From sequence record OP352608: a stretch of 64,000 nucleotides of DNA; one strand, 5' to 3'. Positions 38,907 to 53,852 of this stretch are shown piece by piece. Origin of the DNA: Escherichia phage vB_EcoM_SP13. The translations under genes were made by a program, and so were the position numbers. How positions within the stretch are numbered: position 1 is the first letter of the stretch; every line of letters begins with the position of its first letter. The notes below the pieces were generated by a model, which worked only from the letters and a program-made list of their open reading frames with translations, did not search any database and was not told the origin of the DNA.

Positions 38907-39884
38907 TTAGAAATACTCCATATCGGTAATATCACGGAAGCATTTATACAAAGCAGAGCGCGGCACGTCAACGATGCCAAAGTTAAAGAATTTATACGTA
39001 AGGTATTTATCGCGATAGTTTTCGCGATTCTCCCAAAGCATTTTACGCTCTGCCATAGGCATTGAACCAGCGGAGACGCGGAAAGGAATCATTTCACCTT
39101 TCTCATCCACATATTTTGGATTGACGACTACGAATGAGCCAAGGTATCCTTTCGCAACTAAACCTTCAGCCTCTTTTGAACGCTTGGTGCGACCCAATTC
39201 GTCAATGAATGCTTCGTTGTTGTTCTCCATCATCTCAACGAAGTCTATGATCAATCCTTCTTCATCGGTCCACGGCTTGTCCTTCCACACATCACGTGAC
39301 TTCGGCGTCGCGCGGCCATGCTTGTATTTGCCCGTCCAAGACTTGCCATACAAGCCTTCATATCCAAGCTGGTCCGCTTCGATTTGCATCGCCGCGTACT
39401 GTTCCATATTTTCGATGTTTCGATATTCGAGAGCGCGAAGGAATGGGCGTCGACCATGGTTGATGAGATGTTGATTAACTTCAGCAACTCTAGCTCGATA
39501 GTTCGCATAACGCTTTTCAAAAGGCAAATCAGGGTCGCTGAAGTCATCAAACACCCACCATGTAAAGTTAGTGATTGCATCAGTATTCATGCACGCAGTA
39601 TAGGCCTGTTGCATGACGTTCTTGTCATTTGGATTGCCGTCGATTAGCTCTCCATCAAGTCCGTGAATTAGTTCACCCAAAAAGAGGAATTCTTTTTTGA
39701 TTTGAACGTTTCTCAGCGCCATGCCGGACGTGCCCATTGGCAAGTTGTCATACGCCATTGCGCGTATTCCATCGACCTTGAATGACAATCCGCAAGGCAG
39801 CGGCACGTCTTCGCCGCGCTCGATTATTTGCTTACGCTGGCAACCCTTCATTGGTTTTAATGCTTTGATTTCTCCTGCCATCAC
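38907..39884 (-). CDS. ATP-dependent DNA ligase
   Basis: Nucleotidyltransferase motif I FKVDGIR (KxDGxR) and motif IV-like EGLVAK; start overlaps the upstream stop. Confidence 0.8.
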   Translation of the reverse strand: MMAGEIKALKPMKGCQRKQIIERGEDVPLPCGLSFKVDGIRAMAYDNLPMGTSGMALRNVQIKKEFLFLGELIHGLDGELIDGNPNDKNVMQQAYTACMNTDAITNFTWWVFDDFSDPDLPFEKRYANYRARVAEVNQHLINHGRRPFLRALEYRNIENMEQYAAMQIEADQLGYEGLYGKSWTGKYKHGRATPKSRDVWKDKPWTDEEGLIIDFVEMMENNNEAFIDELGRTKRSKEAEGLVAKGYLGSFVVVNPKYVDEKGEMIPFRVSAGSMPMAERKMLWENRENYRDKYLTYKFFNFGIVDVPRSALYKCFRDITDMEYF

Positions 39885-40474
39885 TCAAACTCCTTATTCA
39901 TCACTTGTTCCAGCGCATAGGCGTAAGCCTGATCAGTAGATTTGATGAACGTTCCGTTGTACATGACACCTTTGCGGTCCTTGATGTCTTCGTAGGCCGC
40001 TTGCGCACAGTCGGATAAGCGAAGGCCATAATCATGAGCTACGCCGGAAAGGTAATCGACTGCGGCCATGATGGTGACGTCAATATCCATGGTCTGATTC
40101 TTAGCAATAGCATCACCAAGCCGTCCAAGGGTCTTTGCCAGGCGAAGGATGAATGAATGAGGGTGAGCGCCTTTATCAGCACAACCGCCGCCATTAATGT
40201 TTTCGATTTCAGTACCGTTTTGCGCCGCCAGGATGGTCAACACAACAAGACAATCGCCAATGTCGTCCTTGATTGCAGCTTGCAAGTCACAGATGGCCTG
40301 CTCTGTATATCCAATTTCAGGGTCGAAGAACACAAGGTCATGGAGTTGATCAACGTGGTCGGTTAACTCCCCAAACTCGCTGATAAGCTTCGGGTATTGG
40401 TCCTTAAGGTCGCAACCTTGGATGATGTTACGGTCAGAAGCCCACTGGCGAATGTTTGCATAAATCTGTTTCAT
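39881..40474 (-). CDS. MazG-like nucleoside triphosphate pyrophosphohydrolase candidate
   Basis: 197 aa acidic helical protein with EFGEL-type segment; assignment tentative. Confidence 0.35.
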   Translation of the reverse strand: MKQIYANIRQWASDRNIIQGCDLKDQYPKLISEFGELTDHVDQLHDLVFFDPEIGYTEQAICDLQAAIKDDIGDCLVVLTILAAQNGTEIENINGGGCADKGAHPHSFILRLAKTLGRLGDAIAKNQTMDIDVTIMAAVDYLSGVAHDYGLRLSDCAQAAYEDIKDRKGVMYNGTFIKSTDQAYAYALEQVMNKEFE

Positions 40475-48282: not shown

Positions 48283-48834
48283 TTATACAGTGTACGGAGT
48301 ACCGTCTTGATTCAAGCGCACGATAAACTTCAAATCAACGCCGATGATTTCACGCGTATCAAAGATCACATAGTTGTAACGACGTTGACCAGCAATGTTC
48401 GGGTTGGTATGAGAGTCAGTTACAACTTCCTGTGCAACCTGAATACCTTCTTCTTTAAAGAACTTACGCCATTCAGCAAGTTCAGCGGCAGTCACGTGCA
48501 TGCCAAGGTGGCTGACCTGATTGTCATGCGCATCGATATATTCGATGTTTTCGTTAATCCAGTTGCAGCCCATTGTGTAGTCAAGGATTTCAAGCTCAAG
48601 AGGCTTACCAGCGCCGCCATCAGTACCGTTGCCAGCCTGATAGTTGAAGCGCAAGTCAGCTTCATTGGTGCAATCGTCGCGACGACCTTTAAAGTCATCA
48701 GCTTCAAATACGCGACCAGTAGCAACAACATGATCATGGAACCATTCTGTCAGGCCGATTTTAGCCAAGAAATCCTGTGCGCGCTGAGCATCTGGAATTG
48801 ACAGGGCGATTTGTTCAATTTTAAAATGTGGCAT
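48283..48834 (-). CDS. VOC-family (glyoxalase/dioxygenase-like) protein candidate
   Basis: Two beta-alpha-beta-type modules starting IEQIALSIPDAQRAQDFLAKIGL and VSHLGMHVTAAELAEWRKFFKEEG resemble VOC repeats; tentative. Confidence 0.35.
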   Translation of the reverse strand: MPHFKIEQIALSIPDAQRAQDFLAKIGLTEWFHDHVVATGRVFEADDFKGRRDDCTNEADLRFNYQAGNGTDGGAGKPLELEILDYTMGCNWINENIEYIDAHDNQVSHLGMHVTAAELAEWRKFFKEEGIQVAQEVVTDSHTNPNIAGQRRYNYVIFDTREIIGVDLKFIVRLNQDGTPYTV

Positions 48835-48930
48835 TTTGTTTCCTTAATTAAATATTATTGATTAATTACTGCGTTGTCTTCGTCCTGTTTCTTTTCAGGA
48901 GCGGGTGTGACAACTTCAAGTGTTCGTGAT

Positions 48931-49614
48931 TTATTTACCAAATGGAATATCAGTGCCAGACATAAAGCGCCATGCGCCCGTAATTAAGATATGGCGAATG
49001 AAGTCAGCAATTACTTGCGGCTCAGTCTCCAATCCATTCATCAGTGCCTTTTTCTGGTATTCAGCGGCGTATTCAGGAGTCCAGCCGCGAGTCGCGCAAA
49101 CGGCATCTTCAATCTGTTTAGACATGCCAGTGCCGCGCAACTTGTTAGGACTAATAGAGAATACCGTGATGCCGTACTTAGGCGTAAGTTCGTGAGCCAT
49201 CTGCTTGCTGATCATAAGCGCAGCGGCCTTGGATGCATTATAACACAAGCTGGACGTCATAGGAATATGCGCAGCATTTGAAACGATGTTGATCACAAAA
49301 CCTTTGTTTTCGATAAGACCTTTCAGCGCGGCCTGAGTCGTGTTAACGAAAGAGAATGCATTGGTGTGCATAACGCGGTTAAACTCTTCATAGTTTACAT
49401 CTTCAAACCAATTGTTAGAGTTGACACCAGCACAGTTGATCAAGCCTTCAACATCATATGGGCTTAAAATTTCTTTCATCTGTTTAGCATCGCGGACGTC
49501 ATATCCGTATGCTGAATCGATGCCAAGCACGTTATGACCGTAAGCGCCAAGGGTGTCAAAAATAGATTTACCAAGACCGGAATTGGAACCTGTTACAACA
49601 ATTACTTTTTTCAT
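48931..49614 (-). CDS. short-chain dehydrogenase/reductase (classical SDR)
   Basis: Cofactor motif VTGSNSGLGKS (TGxxxGxG), NAAH, catalytic YNASK (YxxxK). Confidence 0.8.
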   Translation of the reverse strand: MKKVIVVTGSNSGLGKSIFDTLGAYGHNVLGIDSAYGYDVRDAKQMKEILSPYDVEGLINCAGVNSNNWFEDVNYEEFNRVMHTNAFSFVNTTQAALKGLIENKGFVINIVSNAAHIPMTSSLCYNASKAAALMISKQMAHELTPKYGITVFSISPNKLRGTGMSKQIEDAVCATRGWTPEYAAEYQKKALMNGLETEPQVIADFIRHILITGAWRFMSGTDIPFGK

Positions 49615-49679: not shown

Positions 49680-50552
49680 CTATTTATTGAAATTAATATT
49701 ATGGGTGTTTACAAGACGTTCACACATGGCGCTATAAACACCATCGTCGTGTATTGAGTCTTCGTGCTTCAGGCCGCTGATTGCGAAGCGTGTAAGCTTG
49801 ACAATCTTAAGCTCGAACAGATGCCACATGTGGTAGTCTTCCGGCGTTTTCAACGTTACGCCATTAGGGAAAAGCACCTGCATAACCTGACCTACCATCA
49901 CAGCGTTATCGCCATAGACAGCGTTGCGCTCACGGAAGGTCGCTGCCATTGCATCAAGAATATCGGCGGCAGTTGCCGGAGATTGTTCAACTTCCACAGC
50001 CTTAGTCTCTTCTTGCCCTGTTGCGCTTGGATCAATTGCTAATTGTTGCACCACTTCACCTGCTTTGCAAAGATTAAATGTAAAAGCGATTTTATTTTGA
50101 GCAACGGAGTTATAATACAATGCTTCATCTTGCATCCGCGCGAGTACGTCTTGTCGGTCGTCGAATACATTGATGATTCGATAATCGCCGTGCCGCAAAG
50201 CGTGCGATAGCCATGCAGATTTCATAATAGTTGATGGACGTTTGTCGCCATAGTCTCTCATCTTGATTGTAAATTCATCAAAAGGGAAAACATTGTCCAG
50301 ACGTTCAAAAGTCACTTGTCTGTATTTTTCTGGCCTTGCAGTCCAATATTCAACCGCCTCACCGCGAAGAGATGCCGACTCTACTGCTGATGCAATGTGA
50401 GGATAGAACTGATCATAACCAATACCGCTGTGATAGTCATCATAGTCTGACAACGGACCTGCCACCTTGATGCGGTCTAAGCGCCAACGGTCATCAAACA
50501 GAGTTCCGTCAAGGTCGAATACGTTTAAGATTTGGTTATTTTTGATACTCAT
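49680..50552 (-). CDS. HAD-superfamily phosphatase
   Basis: Motif I FDLDGTLFDD (DxDGT) and a downstream VFDDRQD (DD) motif; no kinase P-loop. Confidence 0.55.
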   Translation of the reverse strand: MSIKNNQILNVFDLDGTLFDDRWRLDRIKVAGPLSDYDDYHSGIGYDQFYPHIASAVESASLRGEAVEYWTARPEKYRQVTFERLDNVFPFDEFTIKMRDYGDKRPSTIMKSAWLSHALRHGDYRIINVFDDRQDVLARMQDEALYYNSVAQNKIAFTFNLCKAGEVVQQLAIDPSATGQEETKAVEVEQSPATAADILDAMAATFRERNAVYGDNAVMVGQVMQVLFPNGVTLKTPEDYHMWHLFELKIVKLTRFAISGLKHEDSIHDDGVYSAMCERLVNTHNINFNK

Positions 50553-51352
50553 CCTTTTGATACTCCATCTTTGGCAACCGGATTATTGGTGATTGGCATC
50601 GCATCCCAAAACTGGATGCGCAACTCTTCTTGCTGTGCAGTGGTATCCATCCAATCACGATACCAAGGGCAATGGGCCTTGCCATGGCGAGGGAATGCGC
50701 ACTTGCCCATACCGATGCATTGCGGCTGTAGTAAAGGATTAGCCCACGGGTGCACCTTGAGGACTTCCGCTACCATCGCACGGAAAACTTCCTGATACTC
50801 GCCTTGAGTACGCGTGCACAAGCGGTTAGAGGCCATTTGTTGTAGAGTGCGCAAGTTGAACTTTGCCATGATATGCGTTTGCATATTAGAAGGCAACACG
50901 GCACGTGCATCTTGAATCTCTGCGCCAGCCGCGCGAAGTTCTTGGTATAGGGCGTCAATGGTTGCCATTGCATCATCCCATTTCTCTGCCAGTTCAGCAG
51001 CCTTCTCGTCATGACGAGTCCATCCCTTTGGATCATCCTCTGGGTAAGTGAATTTGGCAGGACGAATCGCATCAAACGCTGACGACTCCTGAGCGCGGCT
51101 TGTTCGTTCTTGATATGCACCTGTTCGTGTGCGCACCATCTGATGAGTCATATTCTTTGATACATCAGTGATGTCAAAGATATAGTCAACAAAGTCGAAA
51201 GGTGACTTTATGGTGTCAAGCATGTAGCGCCAGTGCTCTTGCTTCTCTGATTCTGTCATCTCAGAGACTGGCTTACCAGCCATGCGCGTATTCTTTGTTT
51301 CCAGCAGAAGGTCAAGTGCATCTTGGGTGTATCGAATTAATTCAACTTTCAT
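50549..51352 (-). CDS. ThyX-family flavin-dependent thymidylate-synthase-like protein with divergent signature motif
   Basis: SPFDFVDYIF ... RTRTGAYQERTSR aligns by eye to the ThyX HETPFEH ... RHR-x7-S region but with His->Thr and Ser->Thr; downstream QDARAVLPSN ... NLRTL retains ThyX-like segments; Cys/His-rich C-terminal extension. Confidence 0.7.
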   Translation of the reverse strand: MKVELIRYTQDALDLLLETKNTRMAGKPVSEMTESEKQEHWRYMLDTIKSPFDFVDYIFDITDVSKNMTHQMVRTRTGAYQERTSRAQESSAFDAIRPAKFTYPEDDPKGWTRHDEKAAELAEKWDDAMATIDALYQELRAAGAEIQDARAVLPSNMQTHIMAKFNLRTLQQMASNRLCTRTQGEYQEVFRAMVAEVLKVHPWANPLLQPQCIGMGKCAFPRHGKAHCPWYRDWMDTTAQQEELRIQFWDAMPITNNPVAKDGVSKG

Positions 51353-51365
51353 TTTAATTATCCTA

Positions 51366-51812
51366 TTAACGGTAGTTAACTAGTTGCTGATCACCAGAGA
51401 AGGTGCAATGATAAACGAATTGTGCGTTATAAAGCAACTGAAAACTTTTCTTTGGTTCATTATTAGAACTCATTGATGTAAAGATTTCTGCACCAGAACG
51501 GTTTTCACCAATCAGGTTGATAAAGCCGCCAGTTGAACGAGGCTGAACGAAAGTGAAACGTTGCATCCACGGAGTGCGGTTGGCACCTTTCCCTGTGAAT
51601 CCTTGAATCTGAATATTCAGGCCTTCTTGCTCGTTCACACCGATGTAAGTGGTAATTGTTGCGCCAGTCGTTGCTGCAGTCTTGCCGTCCATCGCTTCGC
51701 AATCGTAAACAGCGATTGAATCGGAAGTACGGACAGCGGCTTCAGTCGCTTCCATATACATGGTTCCGAGAATAGCAGTTGCGGCAAGCGCGATTCCAGT
51801 GATTCGTTTCAT
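51366..51812 (-). CDS. exported protein of unknown function (signal peptide)
   Basis: MKRITGIALAATAILGTMYMEATEA signal-peptide-like N-terminus. Confidence 0.55.
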   Translation of the reverse strand: MKRITGIALAATAILGTMYMEATEAAVRTSDSIAVYDCEAMDGKTAATTGATITTYIGVNEQEGLNIQIQGFTGKGANRTPWMQRFTFVQPRSTGGFINLIGENRSGAEIFTSMSSNNEPKKSFQLLYNAQFVYHCTFSGDQQLVNYR

Positions 51813-51877: not shown

Positions 51878-52873
51878 TTATTTATTAGCAATATAAGCAA
51901 ATTTTTGATAGTTATTTGCTTTGATGAGTTTTTCAACTTCAACAAGGTCATGAGCAACGTCATCAAGCAAAATGTTTCGCCAAGTAGCAAAGCGACCGAC
52001 ACTAAATACGTTCAAATCCATGGTCAGCTGTAGGAGTAGAGCGTGTCGCAAGTCTTTCGGAATGTCGACAATCTTGCCATACTTCTGGTCGACCTTTTCA
52101 ACTTCTTCGAGATCGATGTCACTCCATGATAGGCCAAAGGCTGTCAATACTTCGTCAACTTCTGCACGCAACTTAATGTCACGGTAACGAGTAATGCCGC
52201 CAGCGGCTTCAACTGCGGCTTCACTTACGCTAACCAAAGGAATTGTTTCAATGATCAGTGTGTCACCAGTGATTGATGCGCGGTAAGTTCTGACGGAGTA
52301 GTCAGGAAAGTAAATGGTTTGATACAGTGCACACTTGCGCTTAATCTTAAAGCGGTAAACACGAATGTTTGCCTTATCGAATGAGAAATCAATCTTTTGA
52401 TCAATCCCAGCAAGCTTCATCATGACTGGCAGCGGCGACGTGTTGATGATTGGCGTCTCGCTATAGCCGCAAAGAGTATCAACAGGAGTATTAAAGAATA
52501 TGCGGTCACCCAGTTTGTCGACAAGCTGATCATAAAAGTCATCAGGCGCAATATAACGCGTTGCAGTTTTAAGCTTCATGATTGAGCGGCTACCGAATTG
52601 ATTAGTGACCTTCATGGAATACATATTGGCAAGGTTGATTGGGCAATGGTCGTGGTAGTAGTTGCCGCGAAAATACACAGCCTTGTCAACTGTCACGGCC
52701 TTAAAAGGGATTCCGGTAATACGGCTTACTTCTTCGCCGCGAAATCGTAGCAAAGCCTTGTGCTGTGGCGCTCGTTCCCCTGCTTCGTACACAATGGAGT
52801 TCGGGAAGTGACACGCGGTAATAAGTCCTGCCAAACCGCCGCCGATAATCATTACAGGTTGTTTCATGTTCAT
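51878..52873 (-). CDS. FAD/NAD(P)-binding oxidoreductase (UDP-galactopyranose-mutase-like flavoenzyme candidate)
   Basis: N-terminal dinucleotide-binding VMIIGGGLAGL; C-terminal FSVGRFATWRNILLDDVAHD resembles the G-R-x-A-x-Y ... D segment of the UGM/amine-oxidase superfamily; subfamily tentative. Confidence 0.55.
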   Translation of the reverse strand: MNMKQPVMIIGGGLAGLITACHFPNSIVYEAGERAPQHKALLRFRGEEVSRITGIPFKAVTVDKAVYFRGNYYHDHCPINLANMYSMKVTNQFGSRSIMKLKTATRYIAPDDFYDQLVDKLGDRIFFNTPVDTLCGYSETPIINTSPLPVMMKLAGIDQKIDFSFDKANIRVYRFKIKRKCALYQTIYFPDYSVRTYRASITGDTLIIETIPLVSVSEAAVEAAGGITRYRDIKLRAEVDEVLTAFGLSWSDIDLEEVEKVDQKYGKIVDIPKDLRHALLLQLTMDLNVFSVGRFATWRNILLDDVAHDLVEVEKLIKANNYQKFAYIANK

Positions 52874-53006: not shown

Positions 53007-53852
53007 TTATTCCGCTTGATCACCGTCTTCGGCATTGTCGTTGGATTCAACATCGACAAACTCGATGTGGCCCATCTCTTCCAGCTTGCTCAGGTAGGAG
53101 CGAACGGAAGCGCCAAACAGTTGATCTTTAACTTTTTCGCCCAGCTCATCGATAGACTGCGCCACGCCAACTTCGCCTTCTTTGATCGCCGCCAGAACGC
53201 GTCCACGGGTGGAATGCTCTTGCGGCTGGCTCAGGCCATTGCCGGTGTAGATGAAGTGAGTGGCTTTTGCACGACGCTGACCGTTTGCCTTTTTAGCAGC
53301 CTTGCGCTCTGCGATGGCTTTGCGACGTTCTTCAGCTTCTTTCTTACGCTGTTCTTTCTGCTGTTCTGCAGCTTCTTTAGCCGCAATCTTAGCAGCTTCA
53401 CGCTCTGCCTTGCGTTTCGCTTTAGCTTCTTCTTTGGCCTTCTCTTTTTCGGCCTTCGCTGCAGCACGGGCTTGATCACGCTCTGCTTTCTTGGCCGCAG
53501 CCTGCTCAGCTTTCAGGCGCTTGGCTTCTTCTTTAGCCTTTGCCTTTTCGATTTCTTTTGCTGCTTTAGCGGCTTCACGCTCTGCTTTCTTAGCAGCAGC
53601 CTTTTCTGCACGCTCTTTAGCTTTCTTAGCTGCTTCTTCAGCACGCTTCTGCGCCTTCTCATCAGCAGCCTGCTTGCGTTTCAGCGCAGCTTCTTCACGC
53701 TTGGCTTGTTTTTCCTGCTCACGCTTCTGGCGCTTCTCTTCGGCTTCTTTCTTTTTAGCCAGGCGTTTTTCTTCAGCCACGCGACGACGTTCTGCTGCGG
53801 CTGCTTGTTTTTCTTCTTTAGATAATACTTTGATTGCTTCGGCCATATTCAC
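53007..53852 (-). CDS. Lys/Ala/Glu-rich low-complexity protein with a globular C-terminal domain
   Basis: About 200 aa of KAEEAAKKAKERAEK-type repeats (TolA-, histone-H1- or IF2-like composition) followed by an 80-aa non-repetitive tail. Confidence 0.6.
   Translation of the reverse strand: MNMAEAIKVLSKEEKQAAAAERRRVAEEKRLAKKKEAEEKRQKREQEKQAKREEAALKRKQAADEKAQKRAEEAAKKAKERAEKAAAKKAEREAAKAAKEIEKAKAKEEAKRLKAEQAAAKKAERDQARAAAKAEKEKAKEEAKAKRKAEREAAKIAAKEAAEQQKEQRKKEAEERRKAIAERKAAKKANGQRRAKATHFIYTGNGLSQPQEHSTRGRVLAAIKEGEVGVAQSIDELGEKVKDQLFGASVRSYLSKLEEMGHIEFVDVESNDNAEDGDQAE

Follow-up and report, generated by a model that had tools for sequence, protein, structure and literature searches.

A ThyX-like protein of Escherichia phage vB_EcoM_SP13 belongs to a large viral branch with altered active-site residues and a conserved four-cysteine unit

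Background

The flavin-dependent thymidylate synthase ThyX is a drug target and the textbook case of flavin-mediated methylene transfer, and every enzyme on which its mechanism was elucidated possesses His53, Ser88 and Tyr91 (numbering of the Thermotoga maritima enzyme TM0449). The DNA analysed here, a stretch of 64,000 nucleotides of Escherichia phage vB_EcoM_SP13 (record OP352608; the whole stretch is called the window below), contains on its minus strand, at 50549-51352, a gene for a ThyX relative that departs from this pattern. It belongs to a large viral branch without His53 and Tyr91, so that either the accepted roles of these residues are not general or the chemistry is different, and it carries beside its catalytic loop a four-cysteine site that is undescribed. 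The finding holds up and amounts to more than a trivial variant, but its weight does not come from the signature motif, which an earlier sequence-only reading of this DNA had stressed. Its interest lies in the catalytic residues that are lacking, in the four-cysteine site and in its bearing on the question of modified thymine in PB1-type phages.

In T. maritima ThyX, His53, termed conserved, makes stacking contacts with the pterin of the folate in the oxidised ternary complex and with the flavin in its reduced state, and by a hydrogen bond to Tyr91 it holds an 'OFF' conformation (PMC11940539, PMC8316439). Mutants of Tyr91 show the relevant rate lowered by 100-1000-fold, and Ser88 and Tyr91 are proposed to help water leave the flavin carbinolamine (PMC11940539, PMC8316439). 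Arg174 activates the uracil via N3/O4 (PMC8316439), while the S88A mutant remains active (PMC4913046).

Phage enzymes of the ThyA family, which is unrelated in fold to ThyX, have altered active sites and produce modified nucleotides that seed hypermodification of DNA; they include the dUMP hydroxymethylases of SPO1, M6 and ViI and the dCMP 5-hydroxylases RB69 gp48 and DLP3 gp80. PolB, which methylates UMP/dUMP in polyoxin biosynthesis, resembles the present protein in being a ThyX-fold enzyme, has modified substrate handling, and is said to keep the canonical signature. The conversion of phage ThyA homologs into flavin-dependent dCMP 5-hydroxylases shows that homologs of thymidylate synthases do change their chemistry (PMC13326640). 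In all characterised thymine-hypermodifying phages, 5-hydroxymethyluracil (hmU) derives from a ThyA-type dUMP hydroxymethylase or from TET/JBP enzymes (Lee et al., PMC8989533). Their nascent DNA has hmU fully replacing T even where the final modification is partial, and they encode a dTMPase and a dTTPase that deplete the dT nucleotide pools (PMC8989533).

Two groups of phages are relevant here. Pbunaviruses, distant relatives with the same thyX locus, were reported in a 2025 preprint to carry hypermodified thymine (PMC12191111). In TG context, about one quarter of T gives way to a nucleoside whose mass is 362 Da in phage F8 ('erythrose/threose sugar alcohol derivative') and 390 Da in phage 14-1 ('circularized aldopentose derivative'); F8 DNA resists enzymes with TG-containing sites and is cut by EcoRI (PMC12191111). 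According to the preprint's authors these phages are without the genes earlier implicated in modification, and no biosynthetic genes were proposed (PMC12191111). Wifceviruses, the genus to which the present phage belongs, resist all six tested restriction-modification (RM) systems except EcoP1_I, for which their sensitivity is high; the systems resisted include EcoRI, EcoRV, EcoKI and EcoCFT, and there is no known protection mechanism (PMC11990801). The published table gives 36-38 EcoRI, 6-8 EcoRV, about 92 EcoCFT_II and 82-89 EcoP1_I sites in their genomes (PMC11990801).

The thyX-like gene and its product

Over the window, identity is 100% to Escherichia phage F13 and 92-96% to further myoviruses of the genus Wifcevirus, among them WFC, ECML-117 and Bas98-101. 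The gene and its signals are as follows.

50549-51352, minus strand: ThyX-like coding sequence, 267 amino acids, ATG start (open reading frame and translation)
51361-51364, minus strand: AGGA ribosome-binding site, 8 nt before the thyX ATG (read from the sequence)
50549-50552, minus strand: ATGA stop/start overlap of thyX with the downstream phosphatase gene (open reading frame coordinates and sequence)

The ATGA overlap is predicted to couple translation of thyX to that of the following HAD-family phosphatase gene. Residues 5-203 match Pfam family Thy1 (PF02511) with an E-value of 1.4e-30 and 106.9 bits, against a gathering cutoff of 24.8, and the protein matches PHROG 85 'thymidylate synthase' at 2.4e-38. 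Structure prediction, which the sequence-only reading had suggested as a check, returned a ThyX fold. The AlphaFold2 (AF2) model, built with 53 homologs, has a mean predicted local distance difference test score (pLDDT) of 87.2 and a predicted template-modelling score (pTM) of 0.81. All of the top 50 Foldseek matches in PDB are ThyX proteins (TMt 0.65-0.75, probability 1.00), led by T. maritima TM0449 with a TM-score of 0.73 and about 20% identity over about 206 aligned columns. Strong purifying selection acts on the gene (dN/dS 0.057 against Bas99 and 0.011 against WFC).

A HMMER (phmmer) scan of 1.84 billion representative sequences found 1622 clusters at E<=1e-3, of which 362 reach E<=1e-10. 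The product of 50549-51352 is a real and strongly conserved ThyX relative, from a large branch of the family that consists predominantly of viral sequences and is uncharacterised. Compared with T. maritima ThyX (PDB 1O26/7NDZ; PF02511, TIGR02170), it is alike in fold, in the dUMP-binding set and in the location of the signature motif. It differs in its low identity (about 20%), in the signature RTR-x7-T, in the changes of His53 to Ile, Tyr91 to Ala and His178 to Arg, and in possessing a C-terminal extension of about 60 residues together with a four-cysteine unit.

Signature motif and other active-site positions

51095-51133, minus strand: variant ThyX signature R74-T75-R76-TGAYQER-T84-S85-R86, canonical form RHR-x7-S-x-R (alignments to T. 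maritima ThyX)
51191-51211, minus strand: I48-K-S-P-F-D-F54, with Ile48 for T. maritima His53, the folate/flavin-stacking residue, and Phe54 for His59 (profile and pairwise alignments)
51092-51094, minus strand: Ala87, where the active-site loop of T. maritima has Tyr91 (Ala throughout the clade)

The register of the signature was established by four concordant alignments, namely phmmer against PDB chains, a clade profile against PDB, MAFFT and the structural match, in which R74-T75-R76-TGAYQER-T84-S85-R86 pairs with R78-H79-R80-IASYNEL-S88-G89-R90 of T. maritima. The reading of RTR-TGAYQER-T in place of RHR-x7-S was thus borne out by every approach, and no shifted register that would restore the histidine of RHR or the serine was found in any of them. 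Ser85, one position beyond Thr84, pairs with Gly89 of T. maritima, and this site is occupied by Gln, Met or Leu in the wider subfamily.

All of the 120 closest homologs have RTR, while their serine position holds Thr in 108, Ser in 11 and Ala in two. Both positions are more variable in the best 150 representatives of the scan, which have Thr, His, Gln, Ser or Asn at the histidine position of the signature and Ser, Thr or Ala at the serine position. RHR is kept in the syntenic ortholog of Aeromonas phage Gekk3-15, and RQR is found in the actinophage homologs Nova gp68 and Ranch gp84. The sequence-only reading had concluded from the altered signature that a non-canonical activity was plausible. 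The change itself stands, while the conclusion drawn from it is weak, because the histidine position is variable and the Aeromonas ortholog has RHR, because Thr84 retains the hydroxyl of the canonical serine at a position that may be Ser, Thr or Ala and whose S-to-A mutant is active in T. maritima, and because the analogy with PolB, considered below, is unsupported. RTR/T is therefore a poor indicator of new chemistry. A non-canonical activity may still occur for reasons outside that reading, namely the missing His53 and Tyr91 and the hypermodified thymine of Pbunaviruses.

The more consequential changes are found elsewhere. At the position of His53 the protein has Ile48, and Ile, Leu or Val occupies it in nearly all of the best 150 representatives. 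Ala87, at the position of Tyr91, is invariant in the clade and replaced by Thr, Val or Phe in other parts of the subfamily; nearly all of the best 150 clusters lack counterparts of both His53 and Tyr91. Arg181 stands for His178, a position that is mostly Arg and in some members Lys or Gln. The sequence-only reading had also aligned a 'PF-x-H/F' core. This refers to the position of T. maritima His59 (Phe54 here, and Phe in nearly all of the best 150 representatives) and has no diagnostic value, the counterpart in Thermus thermophilus Thy1 being Met; the mechanistically important His53 lies six residues before His59.

The residues that hold the 5'-phosphate and the uracil of the mononucleotide are all kept. 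Gln75, Arg78, Arg80, Arg90, Arg147 and Arg174 of T. maritima correspond to Q71, R74, R76, R86, R150 and R177, which are invariant in the 120 close homologs and kept in nearly all 150 distant representatives; the K66/N67/H70/Q71 motif is likewise invariant in the clade. Since the mononucleotide-binding residues are all invariant, the substrate is argued to be a free pyrimidine 5'-mononucleotide with a uracil ring. N166, R168, S50 and D53 (Asp or Glu), which we take to be counterparts of FAD-contacting residues of T. maritima ThyX, are conserved as well.

The four-cysteine unit

50816-50818, minus strand: Cys179, in the loop R177-L-C-T-R181 that bears the catalytic arginine (T. maritima Arg174); invariant, co-occurring with C212, C218 and C228
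50669-50719, minus strand: C212-x5-C218-x9-C228, the three tail cysteines of the unit; invariant in the clade

The sequence-only reading had noted an appended Cys/His-rich tail. The tail (CIGMGKCAFPRHGKAHCPW, residues 212-230) and its three conserved cysteines are confirmed, while the histidines are not part of the motif, H223 and H227 being variable. The conserved unit is instead composed of four cysteines (Cys4), as it includes C179, which lies upstream of the tail and two residues past the catalytic R177. The unit behaves in an all-or-none manner: among 130 representatives covering both regions, 76 have all four cysteines, 51 have none and only three are partial. The C-terminal tail is modelled at a pLDDT of 92-95. 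This co-occurrence and the confidently packed tail point to a putative metal-type site, such as a structural zinc or Fe-S centre formed by C179, C212, C218 and C228, that would staple the tail to the loop of the catalytic arginine.

The four cysteines occur in none of the solved ThyX sequences that matched and were examined. They are found also in archaeal-type sequences that keep His53, His79, Ser88 and Tyr91, one cluster of which includes a protein from a metagenome-assembled genome (MAG) of Methanobacteriota, and in the RQR-type proteins of actinophages. Because the unit is present in both canonical archaeal-type and RQR-type sequences, it is considered to predate the RTR clade and to be independent of that clade. 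A search of the literature found no paper on a metal-binding ThyX.

Distribution of the subfamily

Cluster look-ups for cellular members of the variant branch, two in number, returned almost only metagenomic contigs, together with one archaeal MAG whose protein has the canonical residues and the four cysteines. In Rhizobium phage TM40 the gene of this subfamily adjoins genes for dUTPase and ribonucleotide reductase (RNR). In several distant homologs (P0158, P0167 and P0268) the ThyX domain is interrupted by inteins close to the region of its signature motif. The insertion sites of inteins tend to mark functionally important enzymes, and the inteins of these homologs are read in this way. Fusion partners were sought in the long homologs, which contain only inteins or unassigned N-terminal regions.

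Among the closest known counterparts is the syntenic ortholog in Pbunavirus (PB1 ORF59, 14-1 gp60 and the F8 protein). It is 49% identical over its full length and shares RTR, Ile/Phe, Ala87 and the four cysteines, and its locus likewise has an FAD oxidoreductase upstream and a HAD phosphatase downstream. It differs by an insertion of about 36 residues between the second and third tail cysteines in PB1, whose locus is without the SDR and VOC genes described below. Hypermodification of the DNA is established by experiment for Pbunavirus.

Favoured function

We give about an even chance to the reading that the gene product is a functional flavin-dependent one-carbon transferase acting on C5 of dUMP, most likely forming dTMP for the phage's own rapid replication. 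That the enzyme is functional is argued by the ThyX fold, the retained nucleotide-binding residues, the purifying selection and the coupling into a replication operon. That dTMP is the product is argued by the replication context and the lack of another thymidylate synthase in the window, by the breadth of the branch, which includes phages with dUTPase and RNR beside the ThyX gene, and by the fact that His and Thr replace one another in orthologs. A tblastn search of the window with what we take to be the E. coli ThyA sequence gave nothing below E 0.47, and thyX is the sole thymidylate-synthase-like gene in it.

The replication module is arranged in the order Dda-like helicase, 'TolA-like' protein, a 331-aa protein, a 148-aa open reading frame (ORF), thyX, HAD phosphatase, short-chain dehydrogenase/reductase (SDR), vicinal oxygen chelate (VOC)-like protein, DnaQ-type exonuclease and DnaE-type polymerase. 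Synteny of its core (331-aa protein, thyX, HAD phosphatase, DnaQ and DnaE) extends to PB1, 14-1 and an Aeromonas phage, and in these phages as in Wifcevirus thyX keeps its position between the Dda helicase, the primase and DnaE/DnaQ.

In the proposed mechanism, which would follow that of T. maritima ThyX, FADH- would transfer a methylene from methylenetetrahydrofolate (CH2-THF), or from formaldehyde, onto C5 of dUMP. Catalysis would be arranged differently on the folate side of the flavin, where the His53/Tyr91 'gate' is absent (Ile48/Ala87). Thr84 would supply the hydroxyl of Ser88, Arg181 would replace His178, and the Cys4 metal-type site would hold the C-terminal tail on the catalytic-arginine loop.

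Several points weigh against assigning the protein to ordinary dTMP synthesis. The protein lacks His53 and Tyr91, two residues that are regarded as conserved and important. The score against the NCBIfam thyX equivalog TIGR02170 is 83.0 bits, under its cutoff of 87.9; the best identity to a PDB entry is about 20%, and no solved structure from this branch was found. No paper was found that characterises a PB1-type ThyX or any other member of the subfamily, and the proposal of a metal site is one from conservation only. Finally, the adduct masses of Pbunavirus thymine fit 5-hydroxymethyl-dU derivatives, yet no known hmU source is encoded, and Wifceviruses resist EcoRI, EcoRV, EcoKI and EcoCFT without a known mechanism.

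Alternative functions and DNA modification in related phages

The last of these points lead to the strongest alternative, to which we attach a clearly lower probability than to dTMP synthesis: a flavin-dependent dUMP hydroxymethylase or related C5-alkylating enzyme, in which the exocyclic-methylene intermediate would be released as 5-hydroxymethyl-dUMP (5-hmdUMP) or otherwise trapped instead of being reduced to dTMP. The lack of the His53/Tyr91 apparatus would then alter the product so that it seeds hypermodification of T in PB1-like and Wifcevirus phages. The phage ThyA-family hydroxymethylases and hydroxylases supply the functional analogy. The following neighbouring genes would find roles in such a pathway.

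49680-50552, minus strand: HAD-family phosphatase of the PNKP-phosphatase type, with no kinase domain and with a C-terminal domain (about 100 aa) that is unassigned (Pfam HAD_PNKP 5.3e-08; PHROG 4889)
39881-40474, minus strand: MazG-like NTP pyrophosphatase (annotation of WFC gp056, cd11540; no Pfam confirmation here)
51878-52873, minus strand: two-domain FAD-type oxidoreductase with a GxGxxG N-terminus, 331 aa, conserved upstream (no Pfam family)
48931-49614, minus strand: SDR (Pfam adh_short 4.5e-31)
48283-48834, minus strand: weak glyoxalase/VOC-superfamily protein (Pfam Glyoxalase_4, E 0.0025, below the cutoff)

The phosphatase, which is coupled to thyX through the ATGA overlap, and the MazG-like pyrophosphatase would trim the dT pools, as in hmU phages. 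The 331-aa protein, a candidate flavoprotein resembling UDP-galactopyranose mutase (UGM) or amine oxidases, would with the SDR and the VOC protein be a candidate sugar-handling enzyme.

In favour of this alternative, Pbunaviruses F8 and 14-1 carry nucleosides of 362 and 390 Da for which no biosynthetic genes were proposed, and known thymine-hypermodifying phages need a source of hmU. By our own arithmetic the masses fit hydroxymethyl-dU (hmdU) joined to a tetritol or a pentose with loss of water (258 + 122 - 18 = 362; 258 + 150 - 18 = 390); they would also fit dU joined to a pentose by reductive alkylation (362) and dU joined to a hexose minus water (390). ThyX is the only encoded candidate for a one-carbon transfer to C5 of uracil, because tblastn found no ThyA and no TET/JBP occurs among the listed Pfam families. 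The RM resistance of Wifceviruses in spite of their many EcoRI and EcoCFT_II sites, the proportion of T followed by G in the window (26.7% of all T), the loss of His53 and Tyr91, and the precedent of the phage ThyA-type dCMP 5-hydroxylases are all consistent with it.

Other evidence speaks against it. More than 100 representative clusters show the same active-site deviations, and they are spread over many lineages of phages, among them actinophages and Rhizobium phages whose dNTP modules are ordinary. The literature searched contains no report of a ThyX-type hydroxymethylase. Modification of Wifcevirus DNA is itself a supposition, and as F8 DNA is cut by EcoRI while Wifceviruses resist EcoRI in vivo, the patterns of the two groups cannot be exactly shared. 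Among the 25 listed of the 28 Pfam families matched by 43 non-structural ORFs (E<=1e-3; distant homologs could escape), there is no glycosyltransferase, TET/JBP dioxygenase or nucleotide/DNA kinase, and hence no recognisable hmU DNA kinase or transferase. More generally, the known set for thymine hypermodification (ThyA-type hydroxymethylase or TET/JBP, 5-hmdU DNA kinase and aGPT-Pplase transferase) was not found in the window, by tblastn for ThyA and among these families for the whole set. The HAD domain, being of the polynucleotide 3'-phosphatase type, would also fit DNA end repair beside a phage ligase.

Comparison of F8 with 14-1, which have different adducts, shows ThyX to be 93.8% identical with no active-site differences. 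The most divergent proteins are the HAD protein (84% identity) and ORF58 (78%), which is too little to assign roles.

On the analogy with the ThyA-family enzymes, this ThyX branch may tentatively be proposed as the missing entry enzyme of a new route to thymine hypermodification in PB1-like and Wifcevirus phages, that is, as a flavin-dependent synthase of 5-hmdUMP or of C5-alkylated dUMP, a proposal that we hold to be possible and no nearer to probable. The Cys4 site might in that case be a redox or a structural cofactor. If true, it would account for the sugar-bearing thymidines of Pbunavirus and for the restriction resistance of Wifcevirus. The thyX gene and its conserved neighbours form a short list of candidates for the biosynthesis of modified thymine in Pbunaviruses, which are therapeutic phages. 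As a further alternative, hmU could come from another source, for example from oxidation of T in DNA at TG by the UGM/amine-oxidase-like flavoprotein, and ThyX would then stay an ordinary synthase; PaMx11 gp47 is a precedent for an FAD oxidoreductase whose substrate is modified T within DNA.

Methylation of a different pyrimidine nucleotide, either UMP, as by PolB, or dCMP, is improbable. The signature and the active-site loop are altered, and PolB shows that ThyX paralogs can change their substrate (PMC5954106). The invariant R177 (T. maritima Arg174), however, favours a uracil over a cytosine ring, the relatives are modified on T and not on C, and the genomic context is one of phage DNA replication and not of a biosynthetic cluster. 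PDB chain 4p5a, which we take to be PolB, gave an E-value of 0.94 with no significant stretch, so that the UMP C5-methylase parallel drawn in the sequence-only reading finds no support. Least probable is a catalytically dead ThyX-fold protein kept for a structural, regulatory or nucleotide-binding role, since in spite of the loss of three residues held important in canonical ThyX the substrate-binding arginines and the Q71/H70/K66/N67 motif are invariant, dN/dS is very low, the conserved subfamily is huge and inteins target the active-site region.

Genomic neighbourhood

The 331-aa neighbour has no match in Pfam or PDB by sequence, and only the fold search was informative about it. The HAD phosphatase is conserved beside thyX in PB1, 14-1 and the Aeromonas phage, and its homologs carry PF25109/PF03767. 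The SDR gave no indication of being a pteridine reductase, its PDB matches being generic FabG-like reductases only. The homolog of the VOC-like protein in the Aeromonas phage is annotated as glyoxylase/dioxygenase. The last two genes (48283-49614, minus strand) separate the phosphatase from DnaQ in Wifcevirus and in Aeromonas phage Gekk3-15; PB1, F8 and 14-1 lack both, and databases label them 'moron'.

Restriction sites are unevenly represented in the window. GATC is strongly depleted (101 observed, 283 +/- 16 expected), and BamHI, KpnI and SacI sites are absent where about 6-10 would be expected. Sites for EcoRI (18), HindIII (53) and EcoP1 AGACC (90) occur about as often as expected or more often.

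The 148-aa ORF between the flavoprotein gene and thyX (51366-51812, minus strand) has no Pfam or PHROG match and begins with a signal-peptide-like hydrophobic N-terminus (MKRITGIALAATAILG...); several unrelated small ORFs are found at this position in PB1. The 'TolA-like' protein (53007-53852, minus strand; PHROG 4765) is a highly charged, low-complexity protein of 281 aa rich in Lys, Ala and Glu, whose gene keeps its place upstream of the flavoprotein gene across Wifcevirus, PB1 and the Aeromonas phage.

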